Positions 12,353 through 62,521 are shown, numbered from the stretch's first letter. The stretch is DNA of 64,000 bases from Escherichia coli (GCF_044324785.1 NZ_CP172127.1), one strand, 5' to 3'. Numbers and translations: made by a program. Notes: generated by a model from the sequence alone, not told the origin.

Positions 12353-13237
12353 ATGGCGAAAAGGGAGAACTATAACGAGCTGTACCTGTTTATGCAGGTG
12401 GTGCGAGAAGGCAGCTTTACCGCAGCGGCTCAGCGGCTGGGTCTTGCTCAGTCAGGAGTCAGCCGTTCTGTTCGCGAGCTTGAAGAAAGGCTGGGCGTCC
12501 AGCTGCTAGTGCGCACCACGCGTAAACTGTCGCTGACACAAGCAGGCGAGCAGCTCTACCAGAAGACGGCATCTGGATTTGAAATGTTAGATCTTGGGCT
12601 TGCCACGCTGGCGCACTATCGAGAGACGCCCTCCGGCACTGTGCGTATCAATGCCAGCCAGCACGCGATTGATAAATGCCTGCTGCCAAAGCTGGCGGTA
12701 TTTAAACAGCGATATCCTGATATCCGGCTTGAACTGATAAATGAGAGCCGGTTCGTCGATATCATCGAGGAAAGATTCGATGCAGGTGTCCGCCTGGGGC
12801 CTGAAGTCGGCCAGGGTATGGTCGCGGTACGCATCACGCCCGATATGGAGATGGCAATTGTGGGGACTCCGGAACATTTTCGTCGCTATGGTTTTCCGCA
12901 AACCCCGGCGGATTTAAAGGCGCATCCCTGTATCGCCTATCAGTTTGCCGACGGCAGCGTATACCAGTGGGAACTCAATCAGGATGATAAAAAAATCACT
13001 CATCGCCCTGAAGGGCAATGGGCCTTATCCGACAGCTATATGGAAGCAGAAGCAGCCCGGCTGGGCCTCGGATTGGCCTATGTTCCTGTTGAACTGGTCG
13101 CGGATGATTTAGAACACGGTAAGCTTATCAGGGTGTTGCAGCGTTACAGCCTGCGAATGGAGGGATTGTTTCTCTATTACCCTCATCGCAACGTCTCCCC
13201 CGCCCTGCGGATGGTCATTGATACATTGAAAATCTGA
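12353..13237 (+). CDS. LysR-family transcriptional regulator
   Basis: 294 aa; N-terminal HTH with the LysR signature (FTAAAQRLGLAQSGVSRSVRELEERLGVQLLVRTTRKLSLTQAG) and a C-terminal substrate-binding domain. Confidence 0.85.
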   Translation: MAKRENYNELYLFMQVVREGSFTAAAQRLGLAQSGVSRSVRELEERLGVQLLVRTTRKLSLTQAGEQLYQKTASGFEMLDLGLATLAHYRETPSGTVRINASQHAIDKCLLPKLAVFKQRYPDIRLELINESRFVDIIEERFDAGVRLGPEVGQGMVAVRITPDMEMAIVGTPEHFRRYGFPQTPADLKAHPCIAYQFADGSVYQWELNQDDKKITHRPEGQWALSDSYMEAEAARLGLGLAYVPVELVADDLEHGKLIRVLQRYSLRMEGLFLYYPHRNVSPALRMVIDTLKI

Positions 13238-13679
13238 ACGTTAACAACGACCGACTCTTCACTGTGCAAAATTGTGTCAGGTAGTCCCTCTGCGTTCAAT
13301 TCCAGGGTCTGTACACCCTGCTTTGAGCGAGAAAGAGGGGACTATCCAGCAATGGAGATCACCCAAAAGAAAAAACCACCAGGCTCCCTCGACAACCTTC
13401 ATCCGGGCATTTAGCCTCAATCAACATTTTTATATCTGTCAGGTTACTTCATTATGAAAACTGATCATCATCGTTGTTTTTGTTGCAATAGTAGAATACG
13501 CGTATTTATTCCTCCATCTCTATTAATAACGGCAATAAACTGTTCACTTCACTGATATTTAAAATATACATCCTTTTCAAGCTGTTCAGCGGCGTAAGAA
13601 AAAGTATTAATTATGAATTCGACGATTTAACCATTTCTGGCTGATTGGTAATCATCTGTGATTAATGCTGGTCTATTGA

Positions 13680-14600
13680 TTACGCCAGCACCCTCTCTAG
13701 CTTATTCACCGCCGCCACATACTTCGCCGGATTTTTATCTTTCAGCACCGCCAGATTACGTTGCTTCCAGCGAATAGCCGGAAGATGCTGAATTTCAGGA
13801 TAGCGATACCGCGACCAGTCAGGGCTGTTTTGCTTAAAACTGAGCAAGAACTCGCGATCCAGATCCGTAAGATGTGACTTCAACGCCTGCGGCAGCAAAG
13901 TCGTTACTGACAGCAGCGATTCCAGCGACGTTTCCTGCTGAGTCATCCCCGAAAATTCCTGAGCATACAGCGTCGTGATCCGCTCTGTATCCCAGTTTGG
14001 GGCCAGCAACTCGGCAATGGGGCGGGGATGGCCTGCCAGATAACAAAGAAAACCGTCAAAGATCTCCCGCATCAGTCCCGGTTTCTCCAGCATATTCAGC
14101 ACATCAAACAGATCGCGCGGGTGCTGACGATCAAGCGCTGCGCAGATTTTACCGCCATAAAGATCCGCCAGCGAGACGACACTCATGGTGGTGAAGCCAT
14201 ACTCCATTTCCACACGTTCGCACACAGGCATTTCTGCCGGAGGCAACAACAGCCCGCGCCAGACCGGGCTAACCTCGATCTTAATCTTTGCATCAGCGGT
14301 ATTCACAATGATGCGCTTTTCATCCGCTTTATTTTCCTGCCGAATCGCGGTGATCCCCGGTCTGCCGTTCAGCGATGCAGTAATCCTCTTCAAAGCGTCG
14401 TTGATAGCCGCCAGATCAGTATCGCGATCCGCAAAGCTCTTATACGCCAGATCAATATCCACCGACAGACGGGGAAAATCCTGCACAAACAAATTGATTG
14501 CCGTGCCGCCTTTCAACGCGAAACAGGACTCCTTCGCCACATGCGGCAGAGCAGCCATCAACAGCTTAACCTGCCGGGCATAACTATCACGCAGATCCAT
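13680..14600 (-). CDS. AbiEii-family nucleotidyltransferase (type IV toxin-antitoxin / abortive-infection toxin)
   Basis: 306 aa; N-terminal nucleotidyltransferase motif LKGGTAINLF...LSVDIDLAY characteristic of AbiEii/DUF1814 proteins; overlaps the upstream gene by 14 bp. Confidence 0.75.
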   Translation of the reverse strand: MDLRDSYARQVKLLMAALPHVAKESCFALKGGTAINLFVQDFPRLSVDIDLAYKSFADRDTDLAAINDALKRITASLNGRPGITAIRQENKADEKRIIVNTADAKIKIEVSPVWRGLLLPPAEMPVCERVEMEYGFTTMSVVSLADLYGGKICAALDRQHPRDLFDVLNMLEKPGLMREIFDGFLCYLAGHPRPIAELLAPNWDTERITTLYAQEFSGMTQQETSLESLLSVTTLLPQALKSHLTDLDREFLLSFKQNSPDWSRYRYPEIQHLPAIRWKQRNLAVLKDKNPAKYVAAVNKLERVLA

Positions 14601-15390
14601 CTTCGACTCCTTCCGGTTTAAATGCGCGTGGAACAGTAATTTGATAATCCGGCTCCAGCCAGCCGCCGGGTATGATTTGCCGCTTTCCCGTACCTGTTTC
14701 TATACCGCTTTGATCAATATACTGAAAATAAGGGTGTCCATTACGCCGGGCAAGGTAAAGCATCACCCGGTTGGTTTTAACCGAATGACTGGCGCAGAGT
14801 AACGCCTGCAATTTACGCGGGCTGAGAAGATTCATCCCCTGAAACAGAGCATCGGCATGTTCGAACGATATCAACGAAGGAACGCCGCAGGCGATCTCAT
14901 ACGCGGCCAGTTCCGGGGCACTGCCTGCTAACTGCCGGTCGCCAATTTTCAGTTCCGTAGTCAATGACGTTACATCTACGGTAAGCCCCGATGTATACAG
15001 CGTGATAAATGTTGCAGATTGTTCGAAGGCAGCAAACCATCCCGGCAGCTTAACGTAAGCCGGAAGCGCGAGCCAGACCTGCGGCTTACCCGGTTCGGTA
15101 TAGTGCGCATGGCCCTGAAACGCAAGGCTGGTTAGCCCCGCCACCCGAACAGGCTTTTCCCACTGTGTTTGAAGGCAGTAAACCGCGTCTACCCAATCCG
15201 GCTCACGGCCCGTCCGGCAGTACACGCCGTGAGCGATGCGCCTGAGCCAGCCATTTTGAACATAGAGATAAGAAAGCTTACGATCTACGCCGTTGCGGGT
15301 AAGCCATGACTGGAGCAGCACCTGACCGGGTAGCGTATTTTGCATCAACCAGTTTAGATAGTTTGGCAAATGTCGCTCCTGAATAGACAT
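14587..15390 (-). CDS. AbiEi-family antitoxin/transcriptional regulator
   Basis: 267 aa, immediately upstream of and overlapping the AbiEii gene; N-terminal segment resembles the AbiEi winged-helix domain (GWLRRIAHGVYCR). Confidence 0.65.
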   Translation of the reverse strand: MSIQERHLPNYLNWLMQNTLPGQVLLQSWLTRNGVDRKLSYLYVQNGWLRRIAHGVYCRTGREPDWVDAVYCLQTQWEKPVRVAGLTSLAFQGHAHYTEPGKPQVWLALPAYVKLPGWFAAFEQSATFITLYTSGLTVDVTSLTTELKIGDRQLAGSAPELAAYEIACGVPSLISFEHADALFQGMNLLSPRKLQALLCASHSVKTNRVMLYLARRNGHPYFQYIDQSGIETGTGKRQIIPGGWLEPDYQITVPRAFKPEGVEDGSA

Positions 15391-15652
15391 TAGTAGAAAT
15401 ATTTAAACCAGTGTAGGTTCAGGGATACGCCACAGCAAGAAATAGTTTACTTATTCCTCATTTTGTCTACTTAAAATTGACATTGAGAAAAAAATACAAA
15501 CTTACCTACATTCAGGCAAAGTGCGACAAATAGACTCGGTCGGTTTAAAGAGAACGTGTAACATAGATGCAAATCGAATAGACATTGTTGCCAGCCGTTC
15601 CAAGGTTGTGGGGCGCTGCATGGCCTGAGACGTGATAAATACAGGGAACACA

Positions 15653-18600
15653 ATGAAATTCACTGAAGATACCCGAGTAAAAATCCCCGTCATCCTCCAC
15701 CTGATACGGCTGGGCTACCACTACCTGTCCCTTAAAGAACAACGCTGGGACAAAGAAACCAATATCTTCCCTGACCTCTTCACCGCTGCGATTGGCAGAA
15801 TAAATCCCGGACTTGTGCCAGACGACATCGGACGCCTGTTAAAAGACCTCACGCTGCTTCTCGACAACGATGATCTGGGCCGCGCCTTCTTCGAAAAACT
15901 CAGTGACCGTTCCGGTATCAAACTGATCGACTTTGATAACTTCAACAACAACAGTTTCCATGTCGTCACCGAACTGACCTGCGAAAACGGTGATGAAGAA
16001 TTCCGCCCGGACATCACGCTGCTGATCAACGGCATGCCGCTAATCTTTATCGAAGTGAAAAAACCCAACAATCGGGAAGGCATCGTCGCAGAACGCAACC
16101 GCATCAACGAACGCTTTAAAAACCCCAAATTCAAACGCTTCGCCAACATCACCCAGTTCATGATCTTCTCCAATAACATGGAGTATGACGACAGCGACCC
16201 GGAGCCGATTCAAGGGGCATTCTACGCCAGCAGCTCTTACAGCAACCCGGTATTCAACTACTTCCGCGAAGAAGAACTCTTCAACCTGACCAACTTACTG
16301 AAACCGCTGTCAGAAGAAACCGAAATCGCCGTCCTGAAAGACAACAACCTGGAAGTGATCCGCACCAACCCGGAATTTCAGACCAACAAAGATCACAACC
16401 GCCCGACAAACCGCCTCTGCACCGCGCTGTTGAGCCGGGATCGGCTGGCATTTATCCTGCGCTATGCGCTGGTGTATGTAGCCGAACCGGGCGGCATCCA
16501 AAAACACATCATGCGCTACCCGCAGCTCTTCGCCACCAAAGCGATTGAGCGCAAACTGAACGCTGGCGTGAAAAAAGGCATTATCTGGCACACCCAGGGC
16601 AGTGGGAAAACCGCATTGGCATACTACAACGTGCGCTTCCTGACAGATTACTTCCAGAATCAGCAGGTGATCCCGAAATTCTACTTTATTGTCGATCGTC
16701 TTGATCTGCTCCAGCAGGCGCAGCGTGAATTCACCGCCCGTGGCTTAATCGTTCACCTTATCGACTCCCGCGAAGCCTTCACCCGCGATATCAAAGCGAC
16801 GCAGGCGCTGCACAACCACCACGGCAAAGCGGAAATCACCGTCGTCAACATCCAGAAATTCCGCGATGACCCGGATGTCGTCACCACCAAAGACTACGAC
16901 ATCAACATCCAACGCGTGTACTTCCTCGATGAAGTCCACCGCAGCTACAACCCCAAAGGGAGCTTCCTGGCGAATTTAAGCCAGTCGGACACCAACGCCA
17001 TCAAAATTGGCCTGACCGGTACGCCTCTGCTGGGCACAGACTACAACTCCCGCGACCTCTTCGGCGACTACATCCACAAATACTACTACAACGCCTCCAT
17101 TGCCGACGGCTACACGCTGCGCCTGATCCGTGAAGAGATCGCCACCAACTACCGGATGATCCTGCAACAGGCGCTAAAAGACGTAGAAGTCAGAATGGGC
17201 GATGTGGATCGCAAAGACATCTACGCCCATCCCAGTTTCGTCAAACCGATGCTGAACTACATCGTCACCGACTTTGCCAAAAGCCGGGGCGCACTGAATG
17301 ATGACACCATCGGCGGCATGGTGATTTGCGACAGCTCAGAACAGGCCAAGCAGATGTTTGAGATATTCAACACTGACTACGCCGAATCGCCCACCGCTGC
17401 CGATGACGTCGCCGAAGAAATGCCGGTATTACAGGCCGCAGAGCCTGCCGCCGTTTACCAGATCCACGCCAAAGAAACGCGGAAAATCAAACGCGCCGCC
17501 CTGATCCTGCACGACGTCGGCAGCAAGCAGGAGCGCAAAGAATGGGTGGATCAATTCAAAGCGGGCGAGATTGACCTGCTGTTCGTCTACAACATGTTGC
17601 TCACGGGCTTTGACGCCAAACGGCTAAAAAAACTCTACCTCGGGCGGGTGATCAGAAAGCACAACCTGCTCCAGGCGCTGACCCGCGTCAACCGAACCTA
17701 CAACCACTTCCGCTACGGCTATGTGGTGGACTTCGCCGACATCCGCCAGGAATTTGACGCCACCAACAAAGCCTACTTCGAAGAGCTACAGGCTGAACTG
17801 GGCGATGAAATGGAGCATTACTCCCGCCTGTTCAAATCAGCGGATGAGATTCGCGAAGAAATCGAACATATCAAAGACGTTCTGTTTAGCTTCGATACCG
17901 AAAACGCGGAAATCTTCACTGACCAGATAAACCAGATCCATGACCGGGAAACCGCGCTGGTACTGAAAAACGCGCTGGCCGACGCCCGCAGCCTGTACAA
18001 CCTGATTCGCCTCCAGGGCAACACTGAGTTTCTCCAGGCGCTGGATTTCAACAAACTCAACATCCTTTACCGCGAAGCCAGCCGCCGCCTCGACTTACTC
18101 AACCTGAAGGCGGATCTGGAACAGGGTGTTGACCTCTCCGGCCTGCTGAACCGGGCGCTGGAAGAGGTGATCTTTGAATTCCACAAAGTGGGCGAAGAAG
18201 AGCTGGTACTGGCCGACGAGCTGAAAGAGACGCTGCGCCGCACCCGCGAAGCGCTGGCCGCCAACTTCGACCAGCAGGACCCGCAGTTCGTCAGCCTGAA
18301 AGACGAACTGGAGCGTCTGTTTAAGAAAAAGAAACTCAGCGAAGTCACCCAGCAAGAAATGGTTGCGAATATCGGCACACTCAATAAAATTCATGGCCGC
18401 ATCAAAGAGCTAAACCGCCAAAATAACCTGCTGCGCCAGAAATACCGTGGCGACGTGAAATACGCGCGTACCCACAAACGCCTGCGCGAGCGCGGCGGCC
18501 TGAGCGAGCCGGAGCGTAAAATCTTCGAAGCACTGCTTGGCGTTAAGCTGGATGCGGATGAAAAAGTGCTGAATAACAGCCAGATACTGAACAACGAAAG

Positions 18601-18751
18601 CTATTTTGAGCGGCAGATTGTGTCATGTGTACTCGATCACTTTGAACAACAGCAGCACATCACCCTGAGTGCGAAAGCGGCTGGCGACATCAACCGCCTG
18701 ATTGTGGCGGAATACCTGAACGAATTTAATACCGGAGCACGTACGTGGTAG
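15653..18751 (+). CDS. hsdR: Type I restriction enzyme, endonuclease/translocase subunit HsdR
   Basis: N-terminal PD-(D/E)xK nuclease motif (IFIEVKK), helicase motif I (HTQGSGKT) and motif II (FLDEVHRS); ATG at 15653 preceded by AGGGA, with an upstream in-frame GTG at 15632. Confidence 0.85.
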   Translation: MKFTEDTRVKIPVILHLIRLGYHYLSLKEQRWDKETNIFPDLFTAAIGRINPGLVPDDIGRLLKDLTLLLDNDDLGRAFFEKLSDRSGIKLIDFDNFNNNSFHVVTELTCENGDEEFRPDITLLINGMPLIFIEVKKPNNREGIVAERNRINERFKNPKFKRFANITQFMIFSNNMEYDDSDPEPIQGAFYASSSYSNPVFNYFREEELFNLTNLLKPLSEETEIAVLKDNNLEVIRTNPEFQTNKDHNRPTNRLCTALLSRDRLAFILRYALVYVAEPGGIQKHIMRYPQLFATKAIERKLNAGVKKGIIWHTQGSGKTALAYYNVRFLTDYFQNQQVIPKFYFIVDRLDLLQQAQREFTARGLIVHLIDSREAFTRDIKATQALHNHHGKAEITVVNIQKFRDDPDVVTTKDYDINIQRVYFLDEVHRSYNPKGSFLANLSQSDTNAIKIGLTGTPLLGTDYNSRDLFGDYIHKYYYNASIADGYTLRLIREEIATNYRMILQQALKDVEVRMGDVDRKDIYAHPSFVKPMLNYIVTDFAKSRGALNDDTIGGMVICDSSEQAKQMFEIFNTDYAESPTAADDVAEEMPVLQAAEPAAVYQIHAKETRKIKRAALILHDVGSKQERKEWVDQFKAGEIDLLFVYNMLLTGFDAKRLKKLYLGRVIRKHNLLQALTRVNRTYNHFRYGYVVDFADIRQEFDATNKAYFEELQAELGDEMEHYSRLFKSADEIREEIEHIKDVLFSFDTENAEIFTDQINQIHDRETALVLKNALADARSLYNLIRLQGNTEFLQALDFNKLNILYREASRRLDLLNLKADLEQGVDLSGLLNRALEEVIFEFHKVGEEELVLADELKETLRRTREALAANFDQQDPQFVSLKDELERLFKKKKLSEVTQQEMVANIGTLNKIHGRIKELNRQNNLLRQKYRGDVKYARTHKRLRERGGLSEPERKIFEALLGVKLDADEKVLNNSQILNNESYFERQIVSCVLDHFEQQQHITLSAKAAGDINRLIVAEYLNEFNTGARTW

Positions 18752-18909
18752 AACTGTAATTTAGAGATAAAACCAAAACCCTGATCGACAGCCTGAAAAG
18801 CATCTGTGCGAACTACGGCCTGGGCAACGACGGTAACGAATTCAAAATTATCACTCAGGCATTCCTGTACAAATTCCTGAACGACAAATTCGCCTTTGAA
18901 GCCAAAAAG

Positions 18910-20382
18910 GTGGATAAAAGCATCGCCAGCGCCGAAAAATGGGAAGTCGCGCTCAATCAGATGAGCGAAGAACAGCGGGATAAACTGCAACTGAAGATGA
19001 GCGCCGACACTGCGCGTCTGAAGCCGCATCACTTCATTCAGTATTTATACAACCGTCAAAATGAGGCCAATTTCGCCACCACCTTTGACGACACCCTGAT
19101 GGACATCGCCGCCACCAACAACGACGTCTTCGCGGTCAAAACTGACGGCGGCGCGAAAGTGGTGCTGTTTGAGCGCCTCAGCCAGTACATCGCCGACGAA
19201 TCAAGGCGCGACGACTTCTGCCGCGCCATTATCAACAAACTGGCCGATTTCAGCTTCGAGCGCATCTTCACGCAGAAATTCGACTTCTACGCCACTATCT
19301 TTGAATACCTGATCAAAGACTACAACAGCAACTCCGGCGGCAAATACGCGGAATACTATACGCCCCACGCCGTGGCGCGCATCATGGCGGAAATCCTGGT
19401 GCCGAAAGCACAACAGGGCGTAGTGCGCAACGTAAGCTGTTACGACCCGTCCGCCGGTTCCGGCACCTTACTGATGAACGTGGCGCACGCCATCGGGGAA
19501 GATCGTTGCAGCATCTTCGCGCAGGACATCTCGCAGAAATCCTCCAGCCTGCTGCGCCTGAACCTGATCCTCAACAATCTGGTGCATTCGATCCCCAACG
19601 TGATTCAGGGCAACACCATTCTGCACCCGTTCCACAAGGACGGCAGCGCGCTGAAACGCTTTGACTATATCGTCTCTAACCCGCCGTTTAAGATGGATTT
19701 CAGCGATTTCCGCGACGATTTGGATAGCAAGGAAAACCAGCAACGTTTCTTTGCCGGGATACCAAAAATCAAAGCCAAAGCCAGGGACAAAATGGAAATT
19801 TACCAGTTGTTCCTGCAACACATCATTTTCTCGCTGAAACCGGATGGTAAGGCGGCGGTCGTGGTGCCGACCGGGTTTATCACCGCGCAGTCGGGCATTG
19901 ATAAAGGGATTCGCGAACATCTGGTGAAAAACAAGATGCTGGCGGGTGTGGTTTCCATGCCGTCGAATATCTTCGCCACCACCGGCACTAACGTATCGAT
20001 CCTGTTTATTGACGCCAGCAACAAAGAGAAAGTGGTGCTGATCGACGCCTCGAATTTAGGTGAAAAGGTCAAAGACGGCAAAAACCAGAAAACGGTGCTG
20101 ACCGAAGAAGAAGAGCAGCGCATCTGCGAAGTGTTCAACAACAAGTGGAGCGAAGAGGATTTCTCGGTGGTGGTCAGCTATGACGAGATCGCCGGGAAAA
20201 ATTACTCGTTCAGCGCCGGGCAGTATTTCGATGTGAAAATTGAATACACCGATATGACGCCGGAACAGTTTGCCGCGAAGATGAACGGGTTTACGGAGAA
20301 TCTGGAGAGTTTGTTTAGCCAGTCGCGCGAGCTGGAGGTGGAGATTAAAAAGCAGATGGCGGGGCTGAATTTCCATGGTTAA
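18910..20382 (+). CDS. hsdM: Type I restriction-modification methyltransferase subunit HsdM (start uncertain)
   Basis: AdoMet motif DPSAGSGTLL, catalytic NPPF, and the conserved EYYTPHAVARIMAEIL segment. The annotated start is a GTG; about 150 bp of in-frame HsdM-like sequence lies upstream without a canonical start (see findings). Confidence 0.8.
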   Translation: MDKSIASAEKWEVALNQMSEEQRDKLQLKMSADTARLKPHHFIQYLYNRQNEANFATTFDDTLMDIAATNNDVFAVKTDGGAKVVLFERLSQYIADESRRDDFCRAIINKLADFSFERIFTQKFDFYATIFEYLIKDYNSNSGGKYAEYYTPHAVARIMAEILVPKAQQGVVRNVSCYDPSAGSGTLLMNVAHAIGEDRCSIFAQDISQKSSSLLRLNLILNNLVHSIPNVIQGNTILHPFHKDGSALKRFDYIVSNPPFKMDFSDFRDDLDSKENQQRFFAGIPKIKAKARDKMEIYQLFLQHIIFSLKPDGKAAVVVPTGFITAQSGIDKGIREHLVKNKMLAGVVSMPSNIFATTGTNVSILFIDASNKEKVVLIDASNLGEKVKDGKNQKTVLTEEEEQRICEVFNNKWSEEDFSVVVSYDEIAGKNYSFSAGQYFDVKIEYTDMTPEQFAAKMNGFTENLESLFSQSRELEVEIKKQMAGLNFHG

Positions 20383-21493
20383 AACTATTGGTGATGCTTG
20401 TAATATTAGTACAGGTAAACTTGATGCAAACCAGGCTGTAAAAGGTGGTGATTATCCGTTTTTTACGTGCGCAGAGTTCCCTGAACAAATCGATCATTAT
20501 GCATTTGACGGCGATGTGGTTCTTATTGCTGGCAATAATGCAAGAGGAAACTTTCACGTAAGCAGGTATCAAGGGAAATTTAATGCTTACCAGCGAACCT
20601 ATGTGCTTACAGCCAAACATGGTTATGATATTGATTATATTTACTATGCCTTAAGACTTGAATTAAAGCGATTGCGAGAAAAATCTCAAGGCTCGCAAAC
20701 AAAGTTTCTGACAATGCCGATTTTGACCAGTATATCGCTAGGAAACCTAGTCGAGACTGAACAATCGACAGTTTCAAGAGTATTAAAAATACTGGATAAA
20801 AAAATCGCTCTCAACAATCGTATCAACGCCGAGCTGGAAGCGATGGCGAAAACACTGTATGACTACTGGTTTGTACAGTTTGATTTCCCTGATGCCAACG
20901 GAAAACCGTATAAAACCTCCGGCGGGAAGATGGTGTACAACGCCACGCTGAAACGGGAAATTCCGGCGGGGTGGAATATTAAAAATCTTGGCGATATAGC
21001 GGAACTATATCAGCCTAAGACCATTTCAGGTAACGATTTTATTGATGATGGTGAATATCTTGTATATGGAGCCAACGGTATTGTAGGAAGATTCAATAAA
21101 TATAACCATGAAGAACCTGTCGTTACAATCACCTGCCGTGGAAATACGTGCGGCAATATAAACGTCACACGACCATATTCATGGATTACAGGGAATGCAA
21201 TGGTGGTTAAGCCAAAGTTTAACTATATTTCACCTTATTATATTTATAATTTATTGTCGATATCGGAAGTTGATAAAGTCATTACTGGCTCTGCTCAACC
21301 TCAAATTACGCGAGCAAACCTAGCTCCACTTAAGGTTGTTGAACCAGCAGAGGACATTACGCAAAAATACTCAAAGTCTGTTGATGCTTTTTTTAAAAAG
21401 CATATCTCAATATTAGATGAAAATGATAATTTATTAAAACTCCGCGACTGGCTCCTCCCCCTGCTTATGAACGGACAGGTCACGGTCAAATAA
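20375..21493 (+). CDS. hsdS: Type I restriction-modification specificity subunit HsdS (two target-recognition domains)
   Basis: 372 aa; overlaps the hsdM stop by 8 bp; two variable AT-rich domains separated by a central conserved spacer (LDKKIALNNRINAELEAMAKTLYDYWFVQFDFPD) and a C-terminal conserved helix (LLKLRDWLLPLLMNGQVTV). Confidence 0.8.
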   Translation: MVKTIGDACNISTGKLDANQAVKGGDYPFFTCAEFPEQIDHYAFDGDVVLIAGNNARGNFHVSRYQGKFNAYQRTYVLTAKHGYDIDYIYYALRLELKRLREKSQGSQTKFLTMPILTSISLGNLVETEQSTVSRVLKILDKKIALNNRINAELEAMAKTLYDYWFVQFDFPDANGKPYKTSGGKMVYNATLKREIPAGWNIKNLGDIAELYQPKTISGNDFIDDGEYLVYGANGIVGRFNKYNHEEPVVTITCRGNTCGNINVTRPYSWITGNAMVVKPKFNYISPYYIYNLLSISEVDKVITGSAQPQITRANLAPLKVVEPAEDITQKYSKSVDAFFKKHISILDENDNLLKLRDWLLPLLMNGQVTVK

Positions 21494-21653
21494 TCCCCGC
21501 CGTGTTTTGCGAGGCGCATTCCAGATCCACATTGCGCCGCGCTCACCGCTGTAAAACCGCTTGCCGTTCATAACCGATCGAAGTATCTTTCTCCCGCGCC
21601 TGCAAAATCAGGCGTCGGGATTAGCCTCCTGAAAACCGTTACAGGCGACACTT

Positions 21654-21673
21654 GACGCACCAGCGTCTTTTTT
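21654..21673 (+). terminator. Weak intrinsic-terminator-like hairpin downstream of hsdS
   Basis: GACGC-ACCA-GCGTC hairpin followed by TTTTTT; the 5-bp stem is marginal. Confidence 0.35.
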
Positions 21674-21835
21674 GTGTCGTGCGTTCGGCTACACCTCAAT
21701 GGCGGGCCGGGCGGGGGCGTCGCAAGACGCGCCGGTTTCCTGTAACGCCGGTAAGGCTAACCCCGTCCGGTTCCGCCACCCATGAGATTAGCCTCTCTAG
21801 TGGCGGACATAATAAACCGTTACAGGAGATGCCCT

Positions 21836-22306
21836 ATGGCTACAATCCTCACCCCTGACTGCGATTTACTCGATCTGTTATCCGTTCCCTTCAATGCCAC
21901 CACGGATTTTACTGTCCTTGCCGATTACTGCACCCGCTTCGCCGAAACCCTGATAGAAACCGACGATCCCGCGCTGCGGCTGGCGCTGAGCGGACGGCTT
22001 CACGCGGCTCTTGCGCTACTGCAACCCACACTGCATGACCCCATCCCGCCGCATCTTACCGAAAGCCTGACCGTTAATACCCTTCCCGCCACACCAGAGC
22101 ACTTTATTTCCGAACCCGATTCCTTGTGCGAATACTGCCTCGCACTGCTCCAGCTTCTGCTGGAACGCCCGGCGGAGCCAAAAATGGAGCAAACCCTGAC
22201 CGGGCTGCTGTGTGAGCTGGTCTGGAATTTCACGGAAGGACTCAAATCCCCGCGCTGGCTGCGTACCGCCGACGGCGTAAAATTTATCAGTGAGGTGGCC
22301 GCATGA
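21836..22306 (+). CDS. Hypothetical protein (157 aa from ATG 21836), unknown function
   Basis: ATG at 21836 preceded by CAGGAG; Leu/Ala-rich, no recognisable motif; its stop overlaps the start of the downstream Ner-like fragment (ATGATG). Confidence 0.5.
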
Positions 22307-22655
22307 TGCAACAGGACTGGCATTCCACCGACATTATCGCCACGCTGAAAAAGCGGGGAACGTCTCTGGCGGCGCAGAGAAAAACTCATTGCGGACGCGC
22401 TGTAAATATCGTCAGAAATCATCTGGCCTTCAAGGTACTTTGATAGCAAAGGCAAGCAGGCTGGTTCAGTCCCGTGTTTCTCTTCTTGCATTTTCAGAAA
22501 TGGGAGGCTGGGAGTCTATCGAAATGGTTCGTCGATATGCTCACCTCGCACCTAATCACCTTACCGAACACGCACGGCAAATAGACTCGATCCTGAACCC
22601 ATCGGTCCCAAATTTGTCCCAGTCAAAAAATAAGGAAGGTACTAATGATGTGTAA
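22303..22655 (+). pseudogene. Fusion remnant: frameshifted Ner/Nlp-like HTH gene fragment joined to the 3' end (~190 bp) of a tyrosine-integrase gene
   Basis: The first 24 codons ([24 protein letters not shown]) match the Ner/Nlp family N-terminus as I recall it, then the frame breaks. From about 22460 the DNA and translation ([36 protein letters not shown]) parallel the C-terminus of the intact int at 62240-62431, and the stop sits at the same offset from the tRNA-derived repeat. Confidence 0.55.
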
Positions 22656-22715
22656 CTTATTGATTTAAATGGTGCCGATAATAGGAGTCGAACCTACGAC
22701 CTTCGCATTACGAAT
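22652..22715. repeat. Prophage attachment-site repeat (attL): 64-bp direct repeat containing the 3'-terminal 46 nt of tRNA-Thr (thrW)
   Basis: Identical 64-mer to 62428-62491 (GTAACTTATTGATTTAAATGGTGCCGATAATAGGAGTCGAACCTACGACCTTCGCATTACGAAT); the sequences diverge on both sides. Confidence 0.85.
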
Positions 22716-47392: not shown

Positions 47393-47468
47393 TGGTGCTG
47401 GTTAACGGACTTGAACCGCTAGCCATTCGCTTACAAGGCGACCGCTCTACCATTGGAGCTAAACCAGC
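47393..47468 (-). tRNA. Prophage-encoded tRNA (76 nt; anticodon read as UGU, Thr)
   Basis: Hand fold of GCTGGTT...AACCAGCACCA: 7-bp acceptor stem, D-arm GCTC/GAGC, T-arm AGCGG-TTCAAGT-CCGTT, CCA encoded; the anticodon stem has one mismatch. Confidence 0.55.
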
Positions 47469-47473
47469 ATGTT

Positions 47474-47548
47474 TGGCGGGACAGCGTGGACTCGAACCAC
47501 GATAAGAAGGTTAACAGCCTTCCGTAATGACCTTTATACGACTGACCC
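47474..47548 (-). tRNA. Prophage-encoded tRNA-like gene (75 nt; anticodon read as GUU, Asn), possibly degenerate
   Basis: T-arm CGTGG-TTCGAGT-CCACG and anticodon arm GAAGG-CTGTTAA-CCTTC are clean; the acceptor and D stems each have one mismatch; CCA encoded. Confidence 0.45.
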
Positions 47549-61046: not shown

Positions 61047-61394
61047 GTGGAAGAAGAAATCTTCACTCGTGAAGAGGCAGCGTCGTATCTGAAGGTAGAC
61101 AAAGGCACTATCACGCAGTGGATACGAAGTGGACGACTTCAGGCCGCAAAGATAAATCCAGATAAACCTAAAAGCCCATATCGCATTTGCAAGTCAGACT
61201 GCATTGCGGCGCTTAAGTCTGTGAGACACAATAGCGCGGTGAATGCGGTTGATGTGCAGGAGGTTAAAGCATGTCAATCAAACTACGCGGTGGCACGTGG
61301 CACTGTGATTTCGTCGCGCCAGATGGATCAAGAGTTAGACGCTCTCTTGAAACATCGGACAAAAGGCAAGCGCAAGAACTTCACGATCGTCTAA
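61047..61394 (+). CDS. xis: Excisionase (Xis-like HTH)
   Basis: 115 aa; N-terminal REEAASYLKVDKGTITQWIRSGRL HTH; immediately upstream of and overlapping int. Confidence 0.65.
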   Translation: MEEEIFTREEAASYLKVDKGTITQWIRSGRLQAAKINPDKPKSPYRICKSDCIAALKSVRHNSAVNAVDVQEVKACQSNYAVARGTVISSRQMDQELDALLKHRTKGKRKNFTIV

Positions 61395-62431
61395 AAGCAG
61401 AAGCGTGGAGAGTAAAAAATCTCGGGGAATCACCGAAAAAGCTATTCAAGGAAGCCTGCATACGGTGGCTGCGTGAGAAATCGGATAAGAAGTCCATTGA
61501 TGATGACAAGAGCATTATATCGTTCTGGATGTTGCACTTCAGAGAAACCATTCTCTCAGACATAACAACAGAAAAAATAATGGAGGCGGTAGACGGGATG
61601 GAAAACCGCCGCCATCGCCTGAACTGGGAAATGAGCCGGGACAGGTGTTTGCGGCTTGGCAAGCCAGTGCCGGAGTATAAACCAAAGCTGGCAAGCAAAG
61701 GAACGAAGACGCGGCATCTGGCAATACTTCGCGCTATTCTCAATATGGCTGTTGAATGGGGATGGCTTGACAGGGCGCCCAAAATATCAACACCACGCGT
61801 TAAGAATGGACGAATCAGATGGCTTACAGAGGAGGAATCGAAGCGCCTGTTTGCAGAAATTGCTCCTCATTTCTTCCCTGTGGTCATGTTTGCAATCACG
61901 ACAGGCCTTCGCCGTTCCAACGTTACAGACCTTGAGTGGTCACAGGTCGATCTGGATAAGAAAATGGCATGGATGCACCCTGATGAAACAAAAGCTGGCA
62001 ATGCGATCGGAGTTCCTCTTAACGAAACCGCATGCCAGATATTAAGAAAACAGCAGGGTCTCCATAAGAGATGGGTGTTTGTCCACACCAAACCTGCCTA
62101 CCGAAGCGACGGAACAAAAACAGCAGCGGTAAGGAAGATGAGAACCGACAGCAACAAGGCATGGAAGGGAGCGTTAAAGCGGGCAGGCATTAGCAACTTC
62201 CGCTTCCATGACCTGAGGCATACCTGGGCAAGCTGGCTGGTTCAGTCCGGTGTCTCTCTTCTTGCACTTAAAGAGATGGGAGGATGGGAAACTCTCGAAA
62301 TGGTTCAAAGATACGCCCACCTTTCAGCCGGGCATCTCACCGAGCACGCGAGCAAAATCGATGCGATTATAAGTCGCAATGGCACAAATACGGCACAAGA
62401 GGAGAACGTGGTTTACTTAAATGCGAGGTAA
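61271..62431 (+). CDS. int: Tyrosine integrase (P22-like)
   Basis: 386 aa; catalytic-domain residues (...RFHDLRHTWASWLVQSGVSLLALKEMGGWETLEMVQRYAHL) and N-terminus like P22 Int; its stop lies inside the att repeat next to thrW. Confidence 0.9.
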   Translation: MSIKLRGGTWHCDFVAPDGSRVRRSLETSDKRQAQELHDRLKAEAWRVKNLGESPKKLFKEACIRWLREKSDKKSIDDDKSIISFWMLHFRETILSDITTEKIMEAVDGMENRRHRLNWEMSRDRCLRLGKPVPEYKPKLASKGTKTRHLAILRAILNMAVEWGWLDRAPKISTPRVKNGRIRWLTEEESKRLFAEIAPHFFPVVMFAITTGLRRSNVTDLEWSQVDLDKKMAWMHPDETKAGNAIGVPLNETACQILRKQQGLHKRWVFVHTKPAYRSDGTKTAAVRKMRTDSNKAWKGALKRAGISNFRFHDLRHTWASWLVQSGVSLLALKEMGGWETLEMVQRYAHLSAGHLTEHASKIDAIISRNGTNTAQEENVVYLNAR

Positions 62432-62491
62432 CTTATTGATTTAAATGGTGCCGATAATAGGAGTCGAACCTACGACCTTCGCATTACGAAT
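62428..62491. repeat. Prophage attachment-site repeat (attR): 64 bp overlapping the thrW 3' end
   Basis: Identical to 22652-22715. Confidence 0.85.
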
Positions 62492-62521
62492 GCGCTGCTC
62501 TACCAACTGAGCTATATCGGC
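62446..62521 (-). tRNA. thrW: tRNA-Thr (anticodon CGU)
   Basis: Reverse complement reads GCCGATATAGCTCAGTTGGTAGAGCAGCGCATTCGTAATGCGAAGGTCGTAGGTTCGACTCCTATTATCGGCACCA; canonical cloverleaf; sits beside proA. Confidence 0.9.

Follow-up and report, generated by a model that had tools for sequence, protein, structure and literature searches.

A probable GI-thrW relic behind an HK620-like prophage at the thrW site of Escherichia coli

We analyzed a stretch of 64,000 nucleotides of an Escherichia coli chromosome (GCF_044324785.1, NZ_CP172127.1; the window, with positions counted from its first letter), in which an AbiE pair and a Type I restriction-modification (R-M) system lie between a LysR-family gene and a prophage integrated at the tRNA gene thrW. 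This block is the published genomic island GI-thrW and not a new element, and all its parts are of known kinds. Comparison of sequences leads us, with considerable confidence, to read positions 13685-22653 as an immobilized remnant of that island. It would have been cut back by staged deletions and would bear the scar of an earlier phage; AbiE and the C4 RNA would have been kept, the R-M system would have been switched off, and the HK620-like prophage would have come later. At least three elements left traces at the site: the island, a phage that preceded the present prophage, and this prophage itself. The earlier phage is counted because the integrase fragment at the edge of the island matches lambdoid integrases and because the most complete copy of the island, in Salmonella, is without it.

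The block is GI-thrW

GI-thrW is known from ST131 (EC958) and from the commensal SE15 as a 10.8-kb island at thrW with the Type I R-M system EcoMIII (PMC3203889, PMC4659465). The ST131 methyltransferase M.EcoMIII methylates RTACN4GTG, as was shown by knockout and single-molecule real-time (SMRT) sequencing (PMC4659465). The block in the window occupies the same tRNA site beside proA and presents the same order of parts (AbiEii, AbiEi, hsdR, hsdM, hsdS, isrK/C4, orf157, ner' and int'), with an identical junction between the ner remnant (ner') and the integrase fragment (int'). Identity to the locus of strain 1380 (L001) is 95.5% over 13679-20360 (6.7 kb) and 90.6% over 21429-22715. The AbiEii, AbiEi, HsdR, HsdM and HsdS accessions of strain 1380 are in turn the same as those of SE15, and its gene order is that of SE15. 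The window differs from the published island in several respects. It is without the distal attachment (att) copy and without the pseudogene of IntL, the P4-type integrase described below; its left junction lies in the LysR-ykgR backbone and not beside yagU; its hsdS has other target recognition domains (TRDs); its hsdM has a nonsense codon; and a 39.7-kb prophage separates the island from thrW.

Survey of 5426 complete E. coli genomes bears out the proposal, made in an earlier sequence-only reading of the window, that the block is accessory and not core. The AbiE pair is present in 832 of them, the hsdR of the window in 584 and the isrK/C4-orf157 segment in 1074 (813 of these cover at least 80%). 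Strain O145 RM12522 has an essentially empty site, with a second LysR gene 128 bp from thrW. The same reading expected that genomes without the prophage would have the integrase remnant beside the tRNA gene, and this is what is found: in the prophage-free strains N3, Nord58, 222, SE15 and 1380 the ner'-int' junction stands directly beside thrW. The island is therefore older than the prophage. In RM9088 another phage lies between the block and thrW, and in O139:H1 P15-25 the intervening element carries a P4-type integrase. Because different elements intervene in different strains, the prophage of the window is a later tandem insertion, as had also been proposed; tandem insertion beside the island has happened repeatedly. 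The main text of a survey of E. coli defence islands (PMC10121019) does not name thrW, so no numbered hot spot is linked to this locus here.

The thrW site and the present prophage

The thrW gene, a tRNA-Thr(CGT), is intact at 62446-62521 on the minus strand (ARAGORN). A 62-bp repeat, AACTTATTGATTTAAATGGTGCCGATAATAGGAGTCGAACCTACGACCTTCGCATTACGAAT, composed of the 46 nt at the 3' end of thrW and 16 nt downstream, has exactly two copies in the window, at 22654-22715 and 62430-62491, and none in shuffled sequence. The copies are identical at 62/62 positions. They are the attL (22654-22715) and the attR of the present prophage, the latter forming one segment with thrW at 62430-62521 on the minus strand. 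The prophage itself, of the HK620/Sf6/P22 type, extends over 39.7 kb (22716-62429). Within its first 25 kb, about 50% of the sequence aligns with HK620 and vB_EcoP-611R6 (96.5% identity), including the genes for portal, terminase, tailspike and DNA-transfer proteins. Its int gene (61271-62431, plus strand) ends in a TAA, the last two bases of which are the start of the att repeat. The TAA of the integrase fragment at the other end has the same offset from its repeat, so the coincidence to which the sequence-only reading drew attention is exact. The HK620-like prophage is a recent arrival at a heavily reused site. Two tRNA genes of its own, tRNA-Thr(TGT) and tRNA-Asn(GTT), lie at 47393-47548 on the minus strand.

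The right junction probably records an earlier phage

The block ends on the right in two dead genes. The first, at 22303-22453 (plus strand), is a Ner-like helix-turn-helix gene, recognized by alignment with the intact 84-aa gene of EC17GD31, whose product has matches to PHROG 769 (transcriptional repressor) and to Pfam HTH_35. The copy in the window has lost 65 bp internally after about 22360; it also contains an in-frame stop, and its 3' end is cut off. The second, at 22452-22655 (plus strand), comprises the last 67 codons of an integrase gene of the lambdoid/P22 type. Among intact integrases it comes closest to the 372-aa Int of a complete lambdoid prophage at thrW in PCN061; the fragment is 88% identical in amino acids to residues 306-372 and 99.5% identical in nucleotides over the last 219 bp. 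This match and the retained RYAHL motif with the catalytic tyrosine confirm the suspected homology to tyrosine recombinases. The HxLRH box and everything upstream are absent, and the catalytic domain (R-K-H-R-H/W-Y) is incomplete.

The window, strain 1380 and Nord58 agree in their ner'-int' junction and in the 65-bp deletion within ner, and these therefore go back to one common event. Homology to the Salmonella island described below ends at 22453 and homology to int begins at about 22449, with GGCAAGC common to both. This overlap suggests a microhomology deletion at GGCAAGC, which would have removed the right arm of the island, an att copy and almost the whole of a tandem prophage. Similar int fragments adjoin thrW or an att copy in strains that are free of the island: E2348/69 has the allele of the window, and O145 has a P22-type stub of about 60 bp. 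The scar alleles are mosaic. That of strain 1380 is like the P22-type int and that of the window like the PCN061 type (22452-22655 compared with L001:14801-15004 and L001:4001-4192), which suggests that repeated recombination with the int genes of incoming prophages may have taken place. For SE15 we do not claim that the flanking int fragments share one truncation point, as a 255-bp duplication would have it, as the copy on the yagU side seems to reach further upstream.

The left end and the integrase of the island

The LysR-family regulator gene at 12353-13237 (plus strand; NCBIfam LysR matches) is chromosomal backbone outside the island. This gene (WP_001119037.1) adjoins the locus whether or not a strain carries the island. 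A ykgR remnant, the C-terminal fragment of the gene, follows at 13449-13526 (plus strand) and is conserved backbone too, an incomplete YkgR being annotated in collinear strains. From 12353 to 13688-13690 the window is collinear both with the empty site of O145 RM12522 and with RM9088; by BLAST, backbone homology stops at 13688-13690 and island homology begins at 13679-13685. The left boundary, at 13685-13690, is thus a deletion junction with a few bases of overlap and no att. The sequence-only reading had begun the island at 13238, about 450 bp too far left, since 13238-13684 is backbone with the ykgR remnant. It was right in holding that no distal repeat is present in 13.2-13.7 kb and that the far boundary has eroded: aligned locally to 13.0-13.8 kb, the att repeat scores at best 9/62, which is chance level, and 2.8 kb present in RM9088 are absent at the left junction. 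These 2.8 kb hold a hypothetical gene, an SDR gene, a second LysR gene and the 3' stub of a P4-type integrase gene.

What stood at this end is seen in SE15-type strains, in which the distal att copy is followed by a 439-codon P4-type integrase gene with one internal stop. We named it IntL; tblastn finds no match to it anywhere in the window. The left ends are nested, from the full IntL pseudogene (SE15 type) through the IntL 3' stub (RM9088 type) to none at all (the window, N3, Nord58, 222 and P15-25). CP4-6, which occupies thrW in K-12, is comparable in that its integrase gene intF has the distal position and inward orientation of IntL, and in the reuse of the site, with a copy of the thrW 3' end at each junction. 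The cargo of CP4-6 is unrelated, and despite the shared position and orientation IntL is only 22% identical to IntF, for which reason we rejected the identification of the two.

The most complete copy of the island that we found lies at thrW beside proA in Salmonella enterica (L021, L022). It runs from an att through an intact 439-aa IntL, AbiEii, AbiEi, HsdR, HsdM, HsdS, isrK, C4, orf156, an intact 84-aa Ner, EFASI and a frameshifted Integrase_1 gene to thrW, with att copies at both ends, and no phage int fragment is present in it. Identity to the window is 91.4% over 13685-20382 (AbiE, hsdR and hsdM) and 87% over isrK, C4 and orf157. The Salmonella island is nearly complete, with both att copies, IntL, Ner, EFASI and Integrase_1. 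The distance from Integrase_1 to thrW is 550 bp, with no integrase between. Furthermore, a 40-nt sequence that precedes IntL in the SE15-type locus, on the immediate inner side of the distal att, recurs just inside the thrW-proximal att of the Salmonella island; such a shared sequence would look like the integrase arm sites of a single element. By these comparisons, the island's own integrase would be the distal P4-type IntL, and the int fragment of the window would be the scar of a third element, a lambdoid or P22-type phage. In the fuller copies an EFASI RNA (RF02957) is located between ner and the Integrase_1 (PF12835) gene (L021:11345-11478, L016:11300-11429 and L023:11536-11664); both are absent from the window.

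Relatives at other tRNA genes share a cargo slot

The same backbone recurs at other tRNA genes. In Klebsiella pneumoniae an island at tRNA-Phe, bounded by a 17-bp direct repeat, has the order AbiEii, AbiEi, cargo, isrK, C4, orf153, ner, EFASI, Integrase_1 and P4-type int. The cargo there (L016:7854-9412) comprises a DUF4747 protein and an unannotated 185-aa protein, and could be an uncharacterized defence pair. In E. albertii the same backbone, with a 1070-aa cargo protein, lies at tRNA-Asn. In Dickeya, again at tRNA-Phe, AbiE is missing and a Type I R-M cargo with DarT and Macro-domain genes lies beside isrK, C4, orf153 and ner; the DarT and Macro-domain (DarG-like) genes of Dickeya dianthicola (L025:3220-5518) are embedded in the Type I R-M operon.

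Within E. coli, the slot between AbiEi and isrK is filled either by hsdRMS or, in 261 genomes and between the same flanks, by a 1069-aa defence-associated reverse transcriptase (DRT; PADLOC RT_UG5-nitrilase), seen for example in Nord58 (L004:6324-9533) and strain 222. Swapped defence cargo in one slot is an ordinary pattern of defence islands. A different arrangement is present in the thrW region of TST3 (L018, L019), where a large tandem array of defence systems begins with an intact IntL-like integrase (75% nucleotide identity); the array comprises a UvrD-like helicase, a Type I R-M system, a type I Zorya and a retron Ec67, with at least two internal att copies.

AbiE is kept and the R-M system is probably inactivated

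The AbiEii nucleotidyltransferase toxin (13680-14600, minus strand) is intact, with 306 aa and a PADLOC AbiEii match over residues 5-305 (E=3.4e-116). The AbiEi antitoxin/regulator (14587-15390, minus strand; PADLOC AbiEi, E=3.9e-78) is intact as well, and its start as annotated in relatives corresponds to 15369. The two genes overlap by 14 bp (14587-14600). Such an overlapping bicistronic pair with strong profile matches is what AbiE systems present, and the pair had been identified correctly from the sequence. The homologous pairs in the Salmonella and Klebsiella islands have the Pfam domains AbiEi_3_N/AbiEi_3 and AbiEii; the AbiEii gene of the window is 88% identical in nucleotides to the Klebsiella copy. 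The ratio of nonsynonymous to synonymous divergence (dN/dS) against relatives is 0.03-0.08 for AbiEii and 0.05-0.13 for AbiEi, and it lies within 0.03-0.22 for AbiEi, AbiEii, hsdR, hsdS and orf157, whose frames are all intact. Going by these intact frames and by purifying selection, the AbiE pair of the window, a type IV toxin-antitoxin that acts in abortive infection, is probably still functional.

The hsdR frame, encoding the Type I restriction subunit, is intact at 15632-18751 (plus strand), with the start annotated in relatives at 15653. It matches TIGR00348 (E=7e-77) with 259 bits, under the cut-off of 284.55, and PADLOC REase_I also matches. Identity to the hsdR of RM9088 is 99.0%, and the hsdR of the 91%-identical Salmonella island L021 has the Pfam domains HSDR_N, ResIII and T1R_D3. 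The lesion is in hsdM (18745-20382, plus strand; translation and PADLOC MTase_I), which has a TAA at codon 5 (18757-18759). The N-terminus reads VVEL*FRDK, compared with VVELEFRDK in strain 1380. Codon 5 is GAA in four relatives, so that among the five sequences compared only the window has the stop. The next ATG, GTG or TTG after it is the GTG at 18910, a start at which costs about 55 N-terminal residues, and the MTase_I match spans only positions 57-540 of the 541 in the profile. This hsdM is probably a pseudogene. Type I restriction requires an M2S core. Because of this requirement and of the nonsense codon, the R-M system is probably inactive, and among related islands in this genome only. 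All three subunits named in the sequence-only reading match their profiles; what it overlooked is the stop.

The specificity subunit gene hsdS (20375-21493, plus strand) is full length (PADLOC Specificity_I, residues 5-372). It aligns to other strains only in a central region (20780-20977) and at its C-terminal end (from 21429), leaving two variable blocks between conserved regions. TRD1 recurs in RM9088 alone, and no counterpart of TRD2 is present in any of the five strains compared. Given this combination of variable domains of its own, the predicted specificity of the window hsdS differs from the RTACN4GTG of EcoMIII.

An isrK/C4 RNA cassette precedes orf157

Downstream of hsdS stands an RNA cassette that had gone unnoticed. 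Its leader, of the isrK/seqA type with putative a1 and b1 targets and an intrinsic terminator, is at 21583-21673 (plus strand). In Rfam terms, isrK (RF01394) is at 21596-21673 with 68.0 bits against a gathering threshold of 50, and a c4-a1b1 match (RF03163) at 21583-21635 stays, with 43.8 bits, narrowly under its threshold of 46.7; the terminator-like site at 21654-21667 is followed by a T-run. A C4/CI-type antisense RNA (RF01695) follows at 21695-21783 (plus strand), with 79.9 bits against 45 and in full length (model positions 1-87). The C4 loops contain CCTGTAACG and AGGCTAA. The words complementary to them, TTAGCCT and CGTTACAGG, are each found twice, upstream in the isrK leader (21621 and 21637) and downstream (21788 and 21818-21827). 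The downstream pair makes up the a2/b2 targets (21788-21827, plus strand): TTAGCCT at 21788, and the b2 word CGTTACAGGA at 21818-21827, which overlaps the AGGAG Shine-Dalgarno sequence of orf157, the ATG of which is at 21836. This assignment of targets rests on the exact complementary words and not on duplex energy, as folding of C4 with both leaders gave no discrimination and the a1b1 energy was no better than with shuffled targets. Because the layout matches the C4 immunity system of P1 and the CI system of P4, the C4 RNA should, by analogy, pair with a2/b2 and block the ribosome-binding site of orf157.

The closest RNA cassettes are the immunity region of P4 (seqA, CI RNA, seqC) and immI of P1/P7 (C4, a1b1, a2b2), including isrK-orf45-anrP of Gifsy-1. 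isrK is a structural homologue of the seqA of P4, and the CI RNA pairs with seqA and seqC (PMC4825925). The window has in common with these cassettes a full-length C4, an upstream leader of probable isrK/seqA type with a terminator, and duplicated target words, of which the downstream pair overlaps the ribosome-binding site of the following ORF. It differs in that no resemblance of orf157 to Icd, Ant, AnrP or P4 genes is detectable and in that the block is without the replication and capsid-redirection genes of P4. A P4 satellite was considered and rejected, as neither alpha (primase-helicase) nor the capsid-size and helper-control genes sid, delta and psu are found among the open reading frames (ORFs) of the block. 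The ORFs of at least 110 aa that are supported as genes are all AbiE, HsdRMS or orf157; the rest are unsupported and lie inside these or across ner'/int'.

The gene that had been reported as an unknown one of 157 aa is present at 21836-22306 (plus strand; ORF and homologue search), intact and conserved, with a length of 156 aa. It has 409 homologues in Enterobacterales, a family of 153-156-aa proteins in Escherichia, Salmonella, Klebsiella, Enterobacter, Dickeya and Pectobacterium. Pfam, NCBIfam, PHROGs and PADLOC give the protein no match of its own; in the few homologues for which PF10554 or PF13693 is called, the gene model is a longer, fused one. A tblastn search of 50,697 phage records gave one unannotated 1.5-kb fragment. 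The AlphaFold2 model is a helical bundle (pLDDT 84), for which the PDB holds no match at E<0.03, the hits being generic four-helix bundles at E 0.036 or worse. Among the relic copies of E. coli, dN/dS is 0.11-0.12.

In every case seen, the isrK/C4-orf153-157 unit is directly 3' of the variable defence cargo, be it Type I R-M, DRT UG5-nitrilase, DUF4747 with an unknown gene, or R-M with DarTG. It may not be inert: hundreds of E. coli genomes have kept it whole and under purifying selection, although the integration ends and Ner are lost. We consider, as a rather speculative proposal, that isrK/C4 with orf153-157 might still serve for control or immunity and be retained next to an exchangeable defence slot, in a family of tRNA islands that crosses genera. 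If this were true, the unit might confer RNA-based immunity in trans against those P4-like satellites or P1-like phages whose seqA/seqC targets match. Another possibility is that orf157 might act as an uncharacterized effector or anti-repressor that is freed when infection titrates the C4 RNA.

A proposed history and its alternatives

These comparisons can be arranged into a history. The complete form of the island would consist of the thrW att, IntL, AbiEii/AbiEi, the cargo slot (here hsdRMS), the isrK/C4/orf153-157/Ner cassette, EFASI, Integrase_1 and thrW. A lambdoid or P22-type phage would first have integrated between the island and thrW. The deletion at GGCAAGC would then have dropped the right arm, the middle att and nearly all of the phage, joining ner to the terminal 200 bp of the int gene of that phage, and ner would have decayed further. 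On the left, the IntL pseudogene of the SE15 type would have been reduced to the 3' stub of RM9088 and then lost together with 2.8 kb of backbone, as in the window, N3 and Nord58. The HK620-like phage would have entered thrW last, shifting the relic 39.7 kb from the tRNA. The island could no longer excise, because both integration ends are lost; the conserved flanks would let it spread and swap cargo through homologous recombination. Together with its att, the int scar forms a direct repeat of about 265 bp with the new prophage, and RecA-mediated prophage loss at this repeat could explain the mosaic scar alleles.

Several points weigh against this account. The order of events is parsimony over a handful of loci and not a phylogeny of all 832 genomes. 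Synonymous divergence (dS) among E. coli copies with the same junction is uneven (13680-22306 against L001, L004 and L020), with 0.04-0.09 in hsdR, 0.25-0.33 in hsdM and about 0.2 in orf157; the high values (0.18-0.33) suggest recombination with outside copies and not simple vertical descent. The hsdM stop could be a sequencing error, or hsdM might be translated from the GTG at 18910 or by read-through. Finally, Klebsiella, E. albertii and Dickeya carry a P4-type integrase beside the tRNA, and a proximal integrase may have been lost in the ancestor of the E. coli copies.

This last point can be developed into an alternative, in which the original integrase was a P4-type gene beside thrW that the ner'-int' deletion removed, and the distal IntL came from another tandem element. 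The synteny at tRNA-Phe and tRNA-Asn (isrK, C4, orf153, ner, usually EFASI and Integrase_1, P4-type int, tRNA) speaks for it, as does the different cargo that an IntL-like integrase heads in TST3. Against it counts that about 100 bp left of the AbiEii stop are common to SE15 and Klebsiella but IntL itself is not. The Salmonella copy argues against it as well: it is att-bounded with IntL inside, and its 550 bp from Integrase_1 to thrW hold no integrase. The same 40-nt sequence lies inside both att copies, in the manner of the arm sites of one element. We regard a lost proximal integrase as improbable.

Another scheme is that of the sequence-only reading: a single old element with AbiE, hsdRMS, orf157 and ner kept its own integrase gene next to thrW, and the 200-bp fragment is the remnant of that gene. 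The fragment indeed lies directly 3' of ner and abuts the att at the offset of a functional int, the junction is identical in all strains examined, and the related tRNA-Phe and tRNA-Asn islands do have an integrase beside the tRNA. Those proximal integrases, however, are of another type, P4, and on the opposite strand, whereas the fragment is 88% (protein) and 99.5% (nucleotide, 219 bp) identical to the Int of a complete lambdoid prophage. The att-bounded Salmonella island has its integrase at the distal end and is without the fragment, and the same type of fragment is present in the island-free E2348/69 and, as the shorter P22-type allele, in O145. The identification of the remnant as the old island's own integrase abutting the tRNA is thus not supported, given the PCN061 match and the Salmonella island, and we give the scheme very little credence.

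That the block was never a discrete element, but a defence hot spot of the chromosome whose content was assembled and exchanged through nothing other than homologous recombination between conserved flanks, is hardly credible: two cargo alleles between identical flanks, shuffled hsdS TRDs, mosaic scar alleles and divergence uneven along the island would all suit it, but att-bounded Salmonella copies with an intact integrase, a 17-bp tRNA-Phe repeat bounding the Klebsiella relative and a backbone present at three different tRNA genes in four genera do not, and recombination accounts for the present upkeep and variation of the locus and not for its origin.

What the locus means

For the annotation of this genome, the reading of the block as a GI-thrW remnant means that AbiE is probably functional, that the Type I R-M system is probably inactivated and that the HK620-like prophage is recent. 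More broadly, the locus illustrates how scars are layered at tRNA hot spots, and how an integrative defence island, once deprived of both ends, turns into a fixed part of the chromosome. The only part that may deserve more work is the conserved isrK/C4-orf157 unit, which several genera of Enterobacterales have next to a swappable defence slot.

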